This document shows, piece by piece, positions 1-36,928 of a stretch of 45,571 nt of DNA; the first letter of the stretch is position 1; every line of letters begins with the position of its first letter. The position numbers were made by a program, and so were the translations under genes. The stretch lies in the NCBI GenBank assembly GCA_036396575.1, contig DASWKP010000355.1:1-45571 (forward strand), written 5' to 3'. The stretch comes from Longimicrobiales bacterium (GTDB lineage Bacteria > Gemmatimonadota > Gemmatimonadetes > Longimicrobiales > Gaopeijiaceae). Below the pieces are notes generated by a model. It worked only from the letters and a program-made list of their open reading frames with translations. It searched no databases and was not told where the DNA came from.

Positions 1-207
1 GGTGTGCCGCACCGTGTCCAGAAGCGTGCCCCGACCCTCCACGGACGCGGACACGTCCAGGAAGACGATCTCGTCGGCGCCCTCGGCCTCGTAGCGGCGG
101 GCCAGCTCCACCGGGTCGCCCACGTCCCGCAGGCCTTCGAACTTCGTGCCCTTGACGACCCGCCCGTCCTTGACGTCCAGGCAGACCACCACGCGCGGCC
201 TCAGCAT
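1..207 (-). CDS. hisF: imidazole glycerol phosphate synthase cyclase subunit HisF (N-terminal fragment, runs off left edge)
   Basis: Minus-strand translation from ATG 205-207 gives [55 protein letters not shown]..., a canonical HisF N-terminus. It overlaps the hisB stop as ATGA. Confidence 0.9.
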
Positions 208-776
208 CAGGTCCCGTCCACCTCGCGCAGCCGCACCGAGCCCTTGGTGGAGAAGACGCCCTCGCCCCGGGCGGCCGAGGGGGACAGCGCCTGCCGGAGG
301 GCCAGGCCCACCGCCTTCACGGCGGCCTCGACGACGTGATGCTTGTCCCGGCCCCGGACGACCTTCACGTGGACCGTGGCGGCCAGGTTCGTGGAGAAGC
401 TGCGCAGGAAGTGCTCGTACAGGGGCGATGGCAGGCGCCCCTCGTACCAGGGCCGGCCTCCCACGTCCACGGCGGCCTGCACGAGGGCATCGTCCATGGG
501 CACCAGGGCCCAGCCGTAACGGGTGGCCTCAGCCGGAACCTCGTGAGCCAGTGCGAGCCCCAGCGTGAGGGCCACGTCCTCCACCAGATGGTGGCGGAGG
601 TCGCCCTCGGCCTCGAGCTTGACCGACAGGCCGGCGTAGCGGGCCAGAGTCTCAACCATGTGGTCCAGGAAGCCGTCCCCGGTGGCGACCTCGACGCCGC
701 CGGGGGCCGCGCCGCCGCCGATGGCCACGCCCGCGGTGATGCGGGTCTCCTTCGTCTCGCGCTCCAGCGTGCTCAT
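207..776 (-). CDS. hisB: imidazoleglycerol-phosphate dehydratase
   Basis: 189-aa ORF with [23 protein letters not shown] and [16 protein letters not shown] motifs typical of IGPD. It looks monofunctional, with no phosphatase domain. Confidence 0.9.
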
Positions 777-814
777 GCGTTCTCCTCTTTATCTCCGGAG
801 TCCTTGACGGGCCC

Positions 815-19688: not shown

Positions 19689-20967
19689 GATCCCGGCATG
19701 CCCTCGCGACCCGGTCCACCGCGATGACGTAGGCGGCGTCACGCATGTACAACTTTCGGGAGTGGGCCAGCTCCGCCACGGCCTCGAAGGCCGCGGTCAT
19801 GTTGCGGTCCAGCTTGCCCAGGACCTCGTCCCGGCTCCAGTAGTAGTTCTGGTTGCTCTGGACCTGCTCGAAGTAGGAGCACGTCACGCCTCCGGCGTTG
19901 GCCAGCAGGTCCGGGATCATGAACACCCCGCGCTCGTGGATCACCGCGTCGGCCTCGGGAGAGGTCGGGCCGTTGGCGCCTTCGGCGATGATCTTCACGG
20001 TAGAGGCGATGCGCCCCACGTTGTCCGCGTTGATCTGATTCTCCAGCGCGCCGGGGATGAGGATGTCCACCTCCTGCTCCAGCCACTTCTCCCCCGGCAG
20101 CACCTCGTAGCCGGCCGCCTCGGCCTTGTCCTTCTCGATCTCGCCGAAACGGTCGGTGATGTCCAGGAGCTCCTGGAGGTCGATGCCCGCGGCCCTCCGA
20201 TAGGCGTAGCTCTTCTGCTCCTTCTGATTCCACGAGGACACGCACACCACCTTGCCACCGATGCGCAGGTACATCTCGATGGCGTACTGACATACGTTGC
20301 CGAAGCCCTGCACCGAAGCCGTGGTGTCCTGGGGGCGGATGTCCAGCTCCTTCAGGGCCTCCCGTAGCGTGAAGACCAGGCCGTAGCCGGTGGCCTCCTT
20401 GCGACCCAGGGAGCCACCCAGACCCACCGGCTTGCCGGTGATGAAGCCCGGGAGCTTCTGGCCGTGTATGGCCTCGAACTCGTCCAGCATCCAGAGCATG
20501 TGCTGGGGCGTGGTCATCACGTCCGGGGCGGGGACGTCCTGGAGGGGCCCCACGTTGCGGGCGATCTGTCGCACCCAACCCCGGCAGATCTGCTCCTGCT
20601 CCCGGGCGCTCAGGTTGTGGGGGTCACACACGACCCCTCCCTTGCCGCCCCCCAGGGGGATGTCCACCACCGCGCACTTCCACGACATCCACATGGCCAG
20701 GGCCCGGACCGTGTCCATCGTCTCCTGCGGATGGAAGCGGATGCCCCCCTTGCTGGGGCCCCGGGCGTCGTTGTGCTGAACACGGAAGCCCCGGAACACC
20801 TTCGAGGCCCCGTCGTCCATCCGAACGGGTATGGAAAACGCGTATTCCCGCATGGGCTCACGGAGGATCTCCCGGGTCCCGCCCTCCAGCTCCAGGATCT
20901 CCGCGACGCGGTCGAATTGGGCCTGTGCCATCTCGAAGGAGTTGTAGGCCCGGTTTCTTCTCACCAT
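19675..20967 (-). CDS. gdhA: Glu/Leu/Phe/Val-family glutamate dehydrogenase
   Basis: 430-aa ORF with GPSKGGIRFHP, KCAVVDIPLGGGKGG (catalytic Lys region) and a GFGNV Rossmann motif. Confidence 0.9.
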   Translation of the reverse strand: MVRRNRAYNSFEMAQAQFDRVAEILELEGGTREILREPMREYAFSIPVRMDDGASKVFRGFRVQHNDARGPSKGGIRFHPQETMDTVRALAMWMSWKCAVVDIPLGGGKGGVVCDPHNLSAREQEQICRGWVRQIARNVGPLQDVPAPDVMTTPQHMLWMLDEFEAIHGQKLPGFITGKPVGLGGSLGRKEATGYGLVFTLREALKELDIRPQDTTASVQGFGNVCQYAIEMYLRIGGKVVCVSSWNQKEQKSYAYRRAAGIDLQELLDITDRFGEIEKDKAEAAGYEVLPGEKWLEQEVDILIPGALENQINADNVGRIASTVKIIAEGANGPTSPEADAVIHERGVFMIPDLLANAGGVTCSYFEQVQSNQNYYWSRDEVLGKLDRNMTAAFEAVAELAHSRKLYMRDAAYVIAVDRVARACRDRGWV

Positions 20968-34300: not shown

Positions 34301-34515
34301 GGGGGCTCCTGATCTTGCTCGTCTCGTGCGGGCTGGCTCCGACGCGTCGTGACGCGGCCGGACCTGACACGGTATCCGCGCGCGGTGGAGTGGACAATGT
34401 CTGAAGGCCGTGCCTCCGCACTACCCGCCCCGTGAGGGGAGTGGCGCAACGCGCCGCCCGCACGCAGTTTGGTGCGATGCTGATCGACCTCCCGCTATCC
34501 GAGGAGCTTCATCCG

Positions 34516-35100
34516 ATGCGCAGACTCGCAGCCTCAGCCCTCGTTCTGGGGGCCCTCGTCGTGGGCACGGCCGCCCCGGCCGCCGCCCAGGACCAGGAGC
34601 CCGCCTTCCTGGCCGTGGGCGAGATGGCCCCGGACTTCGAGCTGGTGGGCGCCACCCGCTACGGGGTCCTGAGAGAGCCCGTTCGCCTGAGCGACTTCCG
34701 CGGAGAGACCGTCGTCCTGGCGTTCTTCTTCCGCGTCCGAACGCCTGGGTGAACGGTGCAAATGACAGCGTACCGTGATCAGTACGCAAGCCTCTTTCGC
34801 GACGGTCGGGACGTGGTCCTGATCGGCATCTCAACCGACTCGGCCGAGGACCTGGCCTCCTGGCAGAAGGACGCGGATTTCCCGTTTTTGTTCGCCACGG
34901 ACCCCATGAGCGACGCCTACGTCGCCTTCGGCGGCAACCGCCGCTCGAACAACATGCCCGGCGGCAGAAGCGTCATCGTCGTGGATCCCGAAGGGAGGGT
35001 GGCCGAGGTCATCCCCAGCTTCAACCAGGTGGATCCGGCGGCCTACGACCAGCTCAAGGCGGCCATCGACCGGGTGACGCCGGAGCCCGAGGGCAACTAG
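34516..35100 (+). CDS. bcp: exported PrxQ/Bcp-type peroxiredoxin with in-frame TGA (34750-34752) at the peroxidatic Cys position (candidate selenoprotein)
   Basis: Track ORFs 34432..34752 and 34756..35100 share one frame, separated only by the TGA. The junction RTPG-[TGA]-TVQMTAYRD...VVLIGISTDS matches the Bcp active site TPGCTVQ. GAGGAG lies 9 nt before ATG 34516, and there is a signal peptide MRRLAASALVLGALVVGTAAPAAAQ. Confidence 0.7.
34768..34787 (+). promoter_or_regulatory. SECIS-like hairpin downstream of the in-frame UGA
   Basis: GCGUAC-CGUGAUCA-GUACGC is a perfect 6-bp stem. Its 8-nt loop contains GU, and it starts 15 nt after the UGA. Confidence 0.5.
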
Positions 35101-35504: not shown

Positions 35505-36200
35505 TCAGCCTCCCAGCAACTCCTCCACCGCCCTCGCCAGGTCCTGCCCCCGCCCCACTCCCGTGTACGCCACGCGCCCGTCCGCGTCGAGCATCACCAC
35601 CACCGACGTGGTCAGGGCGCCGTAGGCCCGCACGGCGTTGCCCCGGACGTCGTAAAGGAAGGGGTAGCCCGGGTCGTGGCCCTCCAGGTGCCGCCGGATG
35701 CGGCGGGGGCTCTGATTGACCGCCACCGCCACCGCCACCACGGCCACCCGGTCCCCGTGCTCGGCCTGGATGCGGTCCATCTGGGGCTGGAGGGCCTCGC
35801 AGGTCTCGCACCAGGTGGCCCAGAATTCCAGCACCGCGGGCCGGCCCCGCACGTAGTCCAGGAGCTGGACGGCGTTGCCGTCCAGGTCCTCCATCTCCGC
35901 CGCCGGGGCCTCGCTGCCCAGGGGGAGGCCCACCTCCCCGTCGCCCTGAGCGCTGGCCGCCGTGGGCACGAACAGCAGGGACGGCCCCGCCAGGAGCACG
36001 ACCGTAGCCGCCACCCCCAGCCACACCCGTGTCCTTGTCGGCGCCCCCGCCCGCGCCCCTGCACGCGCCGCGGTTCGCCGCAGGCCTGCCGTCCCGGCGT
36101 CCACAACGGCGTCGGTGGCGCCCGCGGCAGTCCCTTCGGCCCGTGCGCGTGCCGCTCCTGCCGGCTGCAGCCCCCCGCCCATGCTCCTCCACTCGCTCAT
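35505..36200 (-). CDS. TlpA/ResA-like periplasmic thiol:disulfide oxidoreductase
   Basis: ATG 36198-36200 overlaps the ccdA stop (ATGA). It has an N-terminal anchor (VWLGVAATVVLLAGPSLLF) and the LEFWATWCETCEAL thioredoxin motif. Confidence 0.8.
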   Translation of the reverse strand: MSEWRSMGGGLQPAGAARARAEGTAAGATDAVVDAGTAGLRRTAARAGARAGAPTRTRVWLGVAATVVLLAGPSLLFVPTAASAQGDGEVGLPLGSEAPAAEMEDLDGNAVQLLDYVRGRPAVLEFWATWCETCEALQPQMDRIQAEHGDRVAVVAVAVAVNQSPRRIRRHLEGHDPGYPFLYDVRGNAVRAYGALTTSVVVMLDADGRVAYTGVGRGQDLARAVEELLGG

Positions 36201-36928
36201 AGATTGTATCCCGCTTGCACGAAGTAGTATTCGGCCATCGCCAGCATGATCACCGCCGCGGCCCGCTTGACCCACACCATCCATCTACCCGAACGCGGGA
36301 GGACGGCCAGAGTTCCCGAGAAGAGGCCGACGGCCACCAGGAGGGCCGACATCCCGAGGGAGAAGACGAAGAGATAGGCGAAGCCCATGAGTCCCGCTCG
36401 CGTGGCGGCCACCCACGTGAGCACCACTGCGAAGGCCGGGGCGCCGCACGGCGCCGCCACGATGCCGGACGTAGCCCCCAGAAGGAACACCGCCCCCCAG
36501 GAGCCACCCTCCCGCGCGGCCGCCCACCGCGACAGCGCGTGCGGTATCCGCACGGGGATGACGTCCAACATCGCCAATGCGAAGACCACCAGGAGGTTGC
36601 CGATGGCCAAGCGCGCCCATGGACTCGCGCTCACGCTGCCGAACAGCGTCCCCGTCAGCCCCGCCATGAGGCCCAGGGACGCATAGAAGAAGGCCATGCC
36701 CACCACGTAGGTCAGCGTCAAGCCGACGGTGCGCGCCTTGCTCTGGTCCTCCCGGGACGTGCCCGAGATCACCGAGACAGTGATCGGAATGAGAGGATAA
36801 ACGCAGGGCGTCAGCGAGGTGAGTACTCCGGCGCCGAAGAGGAAGGCCAGAGCCAGCAACGGGCTCCCGGACAGGGCCTCGGAGAGCCCGCCGGCGGGTT
36901 CGATCTGGGCAAGGAGGGGCAGCGTCAT
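36197..36928 (-). CDS. ccdA: cytochrome c biogenesis / thiol-reductant transporter CcdA (DsbD core)
   Basis: ATG 36926-36928 (MTLPLLAQIEP...). Both conserved Cys helices are present (LTPCVYPLIP and GIVAAPCGAP) in a polytopic membrane protein. Confidence 0.85.
   Translation of the reverse strand: MTLPLLAQIEPAGGLSEALSGSPLLALAFLFGAGVLTSLTPCVYPLIPITVSVISGTSREDQSKARTVGLTLTYVVGMAFFYASLGLMAGLTGTLFGSVSASPWARLAIGNLLVVFALAMLDVIPVRIPHALSRWAAAREGGSWGAVFLLGATSGIVAAPCGAPAFAVVLTWVAATRAGLMGFAYLFVFSLGMSALLVAVGLFSGTLAVLPRSGRWMVWVKRAAAVIMLAMAEYYFVQAGYNL

Follow-up and report, generated by a model that had tools for sequence, protein, structure and literature searches.

Does the TGA at positions 34750-34752 of contig DASWKP010000355.1 (GenBank assembly GCA_036396575.1, a Longimicrobiales bacterium of the phylum Gemmatimonadota) terminate a broken peroxiredoxin gene, or is it read as an amino acid? 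We addressed this question within the whole stretch of DNA analysed, 45,571 nucleotides (nt) long and hereafter called the window, and among related loci from other genomes. An earlier note, made from the letters of the window alone, had proposed that the TGA replaces the catalytic Cys codon of an exported Bcp/PrxQ peroxiredoxin and is followed by a hairpin resembling a selenocysteine insertion sequence (SECIS). Our results favor the interpretation that 34516-35100 is one gene for an exported, monomeric-type BCP/PrxQ-like peroxiredoxin with selenocysteine (Sec) as residue 79 (U79) at the UGA and with a functional SECIS, and we assign this interpretation a probability of roughly 0.88. Sec as the inserted residue and binding of the hairpin by SelB are what we infer from the sequence patterns described below.

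The peroxiredoxin gene and its in-frame TGA

From ATG 34516 to TAG 35098-35100, translation runs in one frame whose sole internal stop is the TGA at codon 79, and apart from this codon the gene contains neither stops nor frameshifts. With the TGA read as Cys, a single AhpC-TSA domain (PF00578) extends uninterrupted across it, covering residues 34-164 with an E-value of 1.7e-22 and a score of 80.1 bits against a gathering cut-off of 26. The coordinates of one peroxiredoxin gene split by a TGA, as given in the earlier note, were thereby confirmed, and its GAGGAG motif 9 nt 5' of the start codon was also found in place (Table 1); many orthologues likewise have a purine-rich stretch (GGAG/AGGA) ahead of their start codon.

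Elsewhere in the window, TGA behaves as an ordinary stop, ending 17 of the 27 confidently coding genes, which indicates that the code is not reassigned. A genome-wide reassignment of UGA to sense in this lineage, which has nothing in its favor beyond the in-frame TGA itself, is vanishingly improbable in view of these 17 terminators and of the fact that only one TGA in the window interrupts an open coding frame. The codon at 34750-34752 was also the only TGA in a window scan that has the hairpin geometry and is flanked on either side by sequence of coding composition, and a scan of the window for in-frame TGA codons flanked by coding composition revealed no other selenoprotein genes.

To place this codon among its relatives, one genome per GTDB species was scanned, yielding 80 loci with about 20 kilobases (kb) readable each, nearly all from Gemmatimonadota (Longimicrobiales or 'Ca. 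Palauibacter') and several on closed long-read chromosomes. The gene is carried by complete chromosomes such as OZ244837.1, OZ242324.1, OZ252291.1, NZ_OZ253465.1 and CP070670.1. The position of codon 79 was TGA in 82/82 copies from these 80 species-representative genomes. A protein search returned full-length matches of 190-203 amino acids (aa) with 47-64% identity, together with many fragments of 110-114 aa with 70-79% identity that covered only the C-terminal 57% of the protein. In all full-length homologues (...ARTxGCTxQM...; 13-30 sequences across alignments) the TGA column was Cys, and 44 homologues with a Cys codon in this column were verified at the DNA level. The TGA thus sits on the catalytic Cys codon, as had been claimed. 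The earlier note had also considered that close relatives might all carry TGC or TGT next to an unconserved hairpin; this was tested and rejected, as TGA is fixed clade-wide and the synonymous sites of the hairpin are fixed only in the TGA forms. Some metagenome-assembled genomes with this locus are labelled Gammaproteobacteria or Methanobacteriota, while the locus they carry is typical of Gemmatimonadota.

A nonsense-mutated pseudogene, or a sequencing or assembly error in this contig, would agree with the behavior of gene callers, which take the TGA as a stop and call a C-terminal fragment of 110-114 aa. This explanation is nevertheless extremely unlikely, given that the TGA recurs in 82/82 copies from 80 independently assembled genomes, closed long-read chromosomes included, and that both halves of a gene with no other stops or frameshifts are under purifying selection at the protein level. 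In 83 orthologues, the protein is conserved in both halves and synonymous codons are free to vary, and the lineages are well diverged, with a third-position pairwise identity of 54% outside the hairpin.

The truncation recurs in public databases, where gene callers (JGI, NCBI, ENA, Logan) keep only the C-terminal fragment (window 34753-35100; in L143, from the same contig, 20308-20600) under the names 'redoxin domain-containing protein' or 'peroxiredoxin Q/BCP'. Every database fragment starts at a conserved Met four codons past the TGA, which implies that the gene callers were halted by a common in-frame stop. This conserved ATG, picked by gene callers, could also be taken as the start of a separate product, so that the locus would encode a real protein from Met83 (ATG 34762) without an active site, and the upstream open reading frame (ORF) a small secreted peptide. 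We consider this very unlikely. The same Met is the conserved M of ...CTxQM... in Cys forms too, as expected of a structural residue and not of a start, and no ribosome-binding site is conserved before it. Moreover, a protein beginning at Met83 would lack the catalytic Thr, the Cys or Sec and beta-strands 1-3, and the N-terminal half that it discards is conserved within the same AhpC-TSA domain. One full-length protein containing the TGA-encoded residue is the reading we retain.

Two of the related loci carry two Sec-peroxiredoxin paralogues each, 0.7-4 kb apart (L057, at 10235 and 14308; L076, at 10235 and 10920). TGA and hairpin are present in both copies, and one paralogue has RGxG-U in place of RTxG-U.

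The hairpin downstream of the TGA

At the DNA level, the hairpin reads GCGTAC/CGTGATCA/GTACGC; it begins 15 nt past the TGA, and its loop begins 21 nt past it. Its six codons, +6 to +11 relative to the TGA, were nearly frozen in 83 TGA-bearing sequences: GCG in 83/83, TAC in 83/83, CGT in 80/83, GAT in 82/83, CAG in 83/83, and TAC in 83/83. Elsewhere in the same gene, Ala is encoded about half by GCG and half by GCC, Arg mostly by CGC or CGG, and Asp by GAC in 85-95% of cases, and Gln at codon +3, outside the hairpin, is CAG in 44 sequences and CAA in 39. Mean codon entropy was 0.053 bits within the hairpin versus 1.12 bits in 54 other conserved degenerate columns (Mann-Whitney p=4e-5), and third-position pairwise identity was 0.986 inside versus 0.54 outside.

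Homologues of the Cys type served as a control. In 44 unique metagenome sequences, the same A-Y-R-D-Q-Y peptide is encoded by mixed codons (TAC 26/TAT 20; CGC 28/CGT 11/CGG 7; GAC 28/GAT 18). The 20-nt hairpin was exact in 68/72 unique TGA forms and had one mismatch in the remaining 4/72, whereas only 5/46 unique Cys forms matched it with at most one mismatch, a contrast with a Fisher p of about 1e-26 when phylogeny is ignored. Three TGA lineages, including L104 and L138 outside the main clade, all have the exact 20-mer. Constraint at the RNA level falls on the hairpin and goes together with the UGA; what is specific to TGA forms is the fixed loop sequence, written with the rare codons CGT and GAT.

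The element also resembles known bacterial SECIS (bSECIS) elements. The bSECISearch criteria of Zhang and Gladyshev, as relayed by PMC13188914, comprise a loop of 3-9 nt, an upper stem of 4-16 base pairs (bp), a UGA-to-loop distance of 16-37 nt, a minimum free energy (MFE) of at most -7.5 kcal/mol and, further, a G in the first two loop positions. As a stem-loop right after the UGA, with 6 bp in the stem, 8 nt in the loop, a G at loop position 2 followed by a U at position 3, and a spacing of 21 nt, the hairpin lies within all the published limits on loop, stem, spacing and G-U. It differs from the bSECIS consensus in that its loop is longer than in the commonest N(0-1)G[G/U]N... pattern and in that it has no conserved lower stem. 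Of the SECIS-like hairpin described in the earlier note, the position, shape and loop GU stood, and the hairpin proved to be conserved in TGA forms, but covariation was absent and stability was marginal, as detailed below.

A few sequences fall between the two codon types. The closest full-length homologue, P0001 (locus L081), has TGC at 1465-1467 and an exact 20-nt hairpin at 1483-1502; it is nested inside the Sec clade and is carried by a single 2.1-kb contig. This sequence either reverted from Sec to Cys by a single base change, leaving a fossil SECIS behind, or is an assembly variant. L104 and L138, on the other hand, are TGA forms with a canonical FFP motif that cluster among Cys forms and share the identical 20-mer, and in the neighboring Cys forms L103, L101, L102 and L107 the hairpin is exact or has one mismatch. 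The pattern around L104 and L138 suggests repeated Sec/Cys switching or a pre-adapted hairpin.

Codon usage is also uneven on the 5' side of the UGA. Among the 55 orthologues with Arg at codon -2, 52 use the rare CGT, and GGC occupies codon -1 in 73/83; at this site, 34744-34749, the window has CCT GGG. Synonymous choice just upstream of the UGA may thus be constrained as well, as a possible context effect.

Decoding of the UGA and a second TGA-containing family

Eleven of the 80 related genomes also carry, at a distance of 3-9.5 kb from the peroxiredoxin gene, a second candidate selenoprotein family with an in-frame TGA, which is absent from the window. Its sequence ...VVLVFYRGHW-TGA-P(Y/W/F)CA... 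places the TGA in a UxxC motif of an exported Prx-like protein with the AhpC/TSA fold (Pfam 1.2e-27). The hairpin of this family, UCAGCUC-GUG-GAGCUGA, places its loop at the same distance from the UGA as the peroxiredoxin hairpin does, 21 nt, and the loops of both families have G-U-G at positions +25 to +28. This family lends indirect support to Sec decoding in the lineage, as one SelB serving two different genes would need just such matching loop geometry next to a UGA that replaces a redox Cys. The Prx-like thiol:disulfide oxidoreductases (UxxC; PF00578) are a published selenoprotein family (PMC13188914), and it is to this family that the second TGA gene belongs. It shares with the window gene its fold superfamily and the 21-nt spacing between UGA and loop, but the motif is UxxC and not TxxU, and the hairpin sequences differ.

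These data bear on whether the UGA could be passed without selenium, by hairpin-stimulated near-cognate decoding (Trp, Cys, Arg) or by a suppressor tRNA, giving a Cys- or Trp-containing or mostly truncated product. Such read-through would sit well with a hairpin that is short and marginally stable and with the failure to find Sec machinery in the readable DNA (window, edges and related loci; <1% of genomes). Yet the UGA lies exactly at the catalytic Cys, where Sec is documented for the family and where Trp or Arg would kill the enzyme. Furthermore, TGC is one mutation away (as in L081), and TGA was still retained in 82/82 copies. Finally, the recurrence of the 21-nt spacing and the GU loop at the redox-Cys UGA of the second family fits a dedicated factor such as SelB better than generic read-through. 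We therefore regard non-selenium read-through as unlikely, with a small share of the probability, and prefer Sec insertion at codon 79.

Several observations weigh against Sec insertion as proposed here. With ARAGORN, no tRNA-Sec was detected in the window, the 10 kb flanking it on each side or 143 loci, which cover <1% of each genome. Likewise, tblastn with E. coli SelA/SelB/SelD probes found no selA, selB or selD in 1.65 megabases of related loci (<1% per genome), a weak negative. In the protein, Phe (F72, 34729-34731) takes the place of the canonical PxxxTxxC/U Pro, which is F or Y in 81/83 Sec forms. The hairpin shows no covariation, the element being invariant, and its stem owes part of its pairing to the palindromic peptide A-Y...Y-A and to GC-rich codon bias; all six stem positions are pairable in 12/46 Cys forms. 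In isolation it folds at -7.0 kcal/mol (z=-2.3; ensemble -7.45), just short of the -7.5 criterion, and in a context of 51-63 nt a competing fold is the MFE structure (z 0.2-0.5; -16.1 kcal/mol for the 63-nt region). Neither a gathering scan of the window nor a permissive scan of 34650-34900 produced an Rfam match. Finally, export and the electron relay discussed below are read from sequence features and synteny.

The weight of these points varies. Given that <1% of each genome was visible, the negative result for sel genes carries little weight; the window and the 10 kb past each of its edges, together about 65 kb of the 113,558-bp JGI 3300037483 contig Ga0395805_0000254, likewise lacked sel genes, and ARAGORN found no tRNA gene of any kind in the window. 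The Rfam result is uninformative because no bacterial SECIS model exists for this family, and z values of 0.2-0.5 in context make thermodynamics unusable as evidence. Two other structures were considered and rejected. An alternative helix, ACGGUGC/GUACCGU, corresponding to the MFE fold at this site in the window, has a 5' arm that varies uncompensated in orthologues. A lower stem, UGAACNG/CUGUUCA, forms in about half of the orthologues, but the window lacks it and the Leu and Phe codons involved are free to change.

Past the right edge of the window on the same contig, at L143:762-5532 (minus strand), a molybdopterin oxidoreductase of 696 aa with a CxxCxxxC N-terminus is accompanied by a multi-ferredoxin protein of 467 aa and a membrane protein of 412 aa that has no assigned family. 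The oxidoreductase was examined as a possible Sec-containing formate dehydrogenase and rejected, as its intact gene is free of in-frame TGA codons and the upstream neighbor lies in another frame.

Table 1. Coordinates of the peroxiredoxin gene, its elements and its redox neighbors in the window, and of the second TGA-containing family in related loci (prefix L).
Feature	Position	Strand	Remarks
Predicted Sec-peroxiredoxin coding sequence	34516..35100	+	Complete; 194 codons including UGA codon 79; stop TAG 35098-35100; translation, Pfam
Shine-Dalgarno-like GAGGAG	34501..34506	+	9 nt 5' of start codon; read directly
Predicted signal peptide MRRLAASALVLGALVVGTAAPAAAQ	34516..34590	+	RR n-region, hydrophobic core, AxA-Q site; heuristic
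Active-site motif F72-R-V-R-T76-P-G-U79 (FxxxTxxU)	34729..34752	+	Alignment; Phe at canonical peroxiredoxin Pro site
UGA, inferred Sec codon at peroxidatic position	34750..34752	+	82/82 copies TGA; Cys in full-length homologues
SECIS-like hairpin GCGUAC-CGUGAUCA-GUACGC	34768..34787	+	Stem 6 bp (34768-34773/34782-34787); 8-nt loop 34774-34781
TlpA-like periplasmic thioredoxin	35505..36026	-	173 aa (JGI call); WCETC; hydrophobic N-terminal signal or anchor; convergent with peroxiredoxin
CcdA/DsbD-transmembrane-domain electron transporter	36197..36928	-	243 aa (JGI call); Pfam DsbD_TM 2.2e-45; upstream of and co-oriented with TlpA-like gene
Second-family TGA (whole codon)	L012:19419-19421, L018:7789-7791	+	
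Second-family TGA (first base)	L023:19448, L039:19548, L046:19680, L052:19396, L063:19695, L065:19759, L067:18729, L075:18111, L078:13537	+	

Protein family, predicted export and redox neighbors

The active site of the predicted protein has a TxxU motif (T76-P-G-U79) and R151, which corresponds to the conserved active-site Arg and is invariant in the alignment. At the position of the canonical Pro, which is described as absolutely conserved in peroxiredoxins, the motif reads FFF or FFY in 81/83 Sec forms and FFP, with the Pro kept, in Cys forms and in L104 and L138. The change from Pro to Phe or Tyr looks like a correlated active-site change accompanying Sec. The window protein is also devoid of Cys, and the mature part is Cys-free in 71/72 orthologues. 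With no Cys, and hence no internal resolving Cys, it would act as a 1-Sec enzyme and depend on a thiol from another molecule for resolution.

The closest PDB sequences found by phmmer are BCP/PrxQ proteins (3drn, 2ywn, 3hjp and 5epf, E about 1e-10, and 2cx3). As a structural proxy, the closest Cys form, P0001, was modelled with AlphaFold, and the model showed a peroxiredoxin fold (pLDDT, the per-residue confidence, of 89; pTM, the global fold confidence, of 0.83) with the Cys at the start of helix 72-83 and a signal-like N-terminal part of low pLDDT. BCPs were the best Foldseek matches of this model, with target-normalized TM scores of 0.82-0.83 versus about 0.7-0.76 for Prx1 types. Scores against NCBIfam models fell under the cut-offs for Bcp (PRK09437; 54.1 vs 140 bits), PrxQ (NF053650; 40.4 vs 260) and the curated Sec-peroxiredoxin equivalog PrxU (NF040737; 32.2 bits vs 270). 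By these sequence comparisons, the protein is a divergent BCP-like peroxiredoxin outside the curated PrxU selenoprotein family. The Bcp/PrxQ identity proposed in the earlier note was thus upheld in part: the nearest relatives are BCP/PrxQ by both sequence and structure, but the protein is under every curated NCBIfam cut-off, lacks a resolving Cys and has Phe for Pro.

A resolving Cys, at five residues past the peroxidatic Cys (Cp+5) or in helix alpha3, is typical of BCP/PrxQ proteins and not universal among them. Compared with E. coli Bcp, Sulfolobus Bcp1 and Bcp4, and M. tuberculosis BcpB, the window protein is alike in size and monomer-type architecture, but its sequence predicts no resolving Cys at Cp+5 or elsewhere, Sec for Cys, Phe for Pro, and export. 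Sec-peroxiredoxins (TxxU; PF00578/COG1225) are an established bacterial selenoprotein family, with PrxU of Eubacterium acidaminophilum as the founding member, and are abundant in the selenoproteomes of the Sargasso Sea and the Global Ocean Sampling (GOS) (PMC13188914, PMC1088965); the Pro of their PxxxTxxU motif is described as highly conserved. The window protein shares with this family the AhpC/TSA fold, a predicted Sec at the peroxidatic TxxU, the active-site Arg and a SECIS-like hairpin in the coding region just downstream. It departs from PrxU and other Sec-peroxiredoxins in having Phe (or Tyr in relatives) for Pro, a predicted signal peptide, no Cys, a linkage to TlpA/CcdA genes and a Gemmatimonadota clade as its host.

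The earlier suggestion of an exported enzyme gained support. A signal-like N-terminus, defined heuristically by a Kyte-Doolittle core >1.6 (12-residue window) and an ...A-x-A-Q end, is present in 70/72 orthologues, and the neighbors are of the TlpA and CcdA types, so that the protein is probably exported. The TlpA-like gene holds the same position and orientation in 69/80 loci, and CcdA lies beside it in 68/80; no other window neighbor is conserved across the 80 loci. The TlpA-like protein matches Pfam Redoxin/AhpC-TSA/Thioredoxin and is below the NCBIfam cut-offs for ResA/TlpA-like proteins. The possibility that this partner is itself a selenoprotein was rejected, as its motif is always WCExC across loci.

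From these features we propose the following pathway. The hairpin at 34768-34787, 21 nt 3' of the UGA, would support SelB- and SECIS-dependent co-translational insertion of Sec at codon 79, after which the signal peptide would direct export through the Sec translocon and be cleaved. In the periplasm, the selenolate would reduce H2O2 or an organic peroxide and become selenenic acid, whose Se-OH would be attacked by the CxxC of the neighboring TlpA-like thioredoxin, which CcdA would in turn re-reduce with electrons from cytoplasmic thioredoxin. We lean towards such a TlpA/CcdA relay as the reductant of the Sec-peroxiredoxin, with considerable room for doubt. A comparable pathway is known from Caulobacter crescentus, where TlpA reduces PprX, a PrxQ-type peroxiredoxin with a signal peptide, and is itself reduced by ScsB, a member of the DsbD family (Cho et al. 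2012, PMC3322552); according to the same paper, bacteria differ in the membrane donor they use. In both systems, the gene set comprises a PrxQ-type peroxiredoxin, which in the present case has a predicted signal peptide, a TlpA-like thioredoxin and a DsbD-family membrane reductase. They differ in that Caulobacter has ScsB, whereas the present locus has a minimal CcdA, a predicted Sec and no resolving Cys, with a linkage known from synteny.

Sec-peroxiredoxins, SECIS hairpins within coding regions and TlpA-dependent periplasmic peroxiredoxins are already known, and no principle is changed by this locus. What is particular here is the Gemmatimonadota clade, the predicted export, the lack of Cys, the Pro-to-Phe change, the TlpA/CcdA linkage, the rigid 20-nt element and the systematic truncation in annotation. 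In the literature searched, we found nothing relevant on Sec in Gemmatimonadetes, Gemmatimonadota or Longimicrobia, and the phylum was absent from the selenoproteome reviews found. A broader hypothesis, on which we are evenly divided, is that Longimicrobiales and 'Ca. Palauibacter', including sponge symbionts, share a clade-wide selenium-dependent module for periplasmic peroxide reduction. In such a module, an exported 1-Sec peroxiredoxin that has lost the Pro and all Cys would be resolved by TlpA-like/CcdA proteins, and a rigid 20-nt SECIS would have been gained or lost several times with Sec/Cys switches; this would be the first selenium-based peroxidase pathway of the envelope.

No curated NCBIfam model covers this clade, and its recognition would correct hundreds of truncated records and add Gemmatimonadota to the users of Sec. 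Our results also suggest that these bacteria, which are soil, marine and sponge-associated, rely on a supply of selenium to defend the envelope against peroxide. Because apparent Cys revertants keep the fossil hairpin, the clade offers a natural comparison of Sec and Cys in a 1-Cys-type peroxiredoxin.

Two features of the surrounding DNA complete the description. Directly upstream of CcdA lie two ORFs on the minus strand, 36925-37662 (245 aa) and 37676-38551 (291 aa), which match no Pfam family and have no equivalent among the 80 loci. The left end of the window (1-800, and L140) falls in a histidine-biosynthesis operon (hisG, hisD, hisC, hisH, hisA/F, hisB, hisIE), an ordinary his operon that helps show that the contig is chromosomal.

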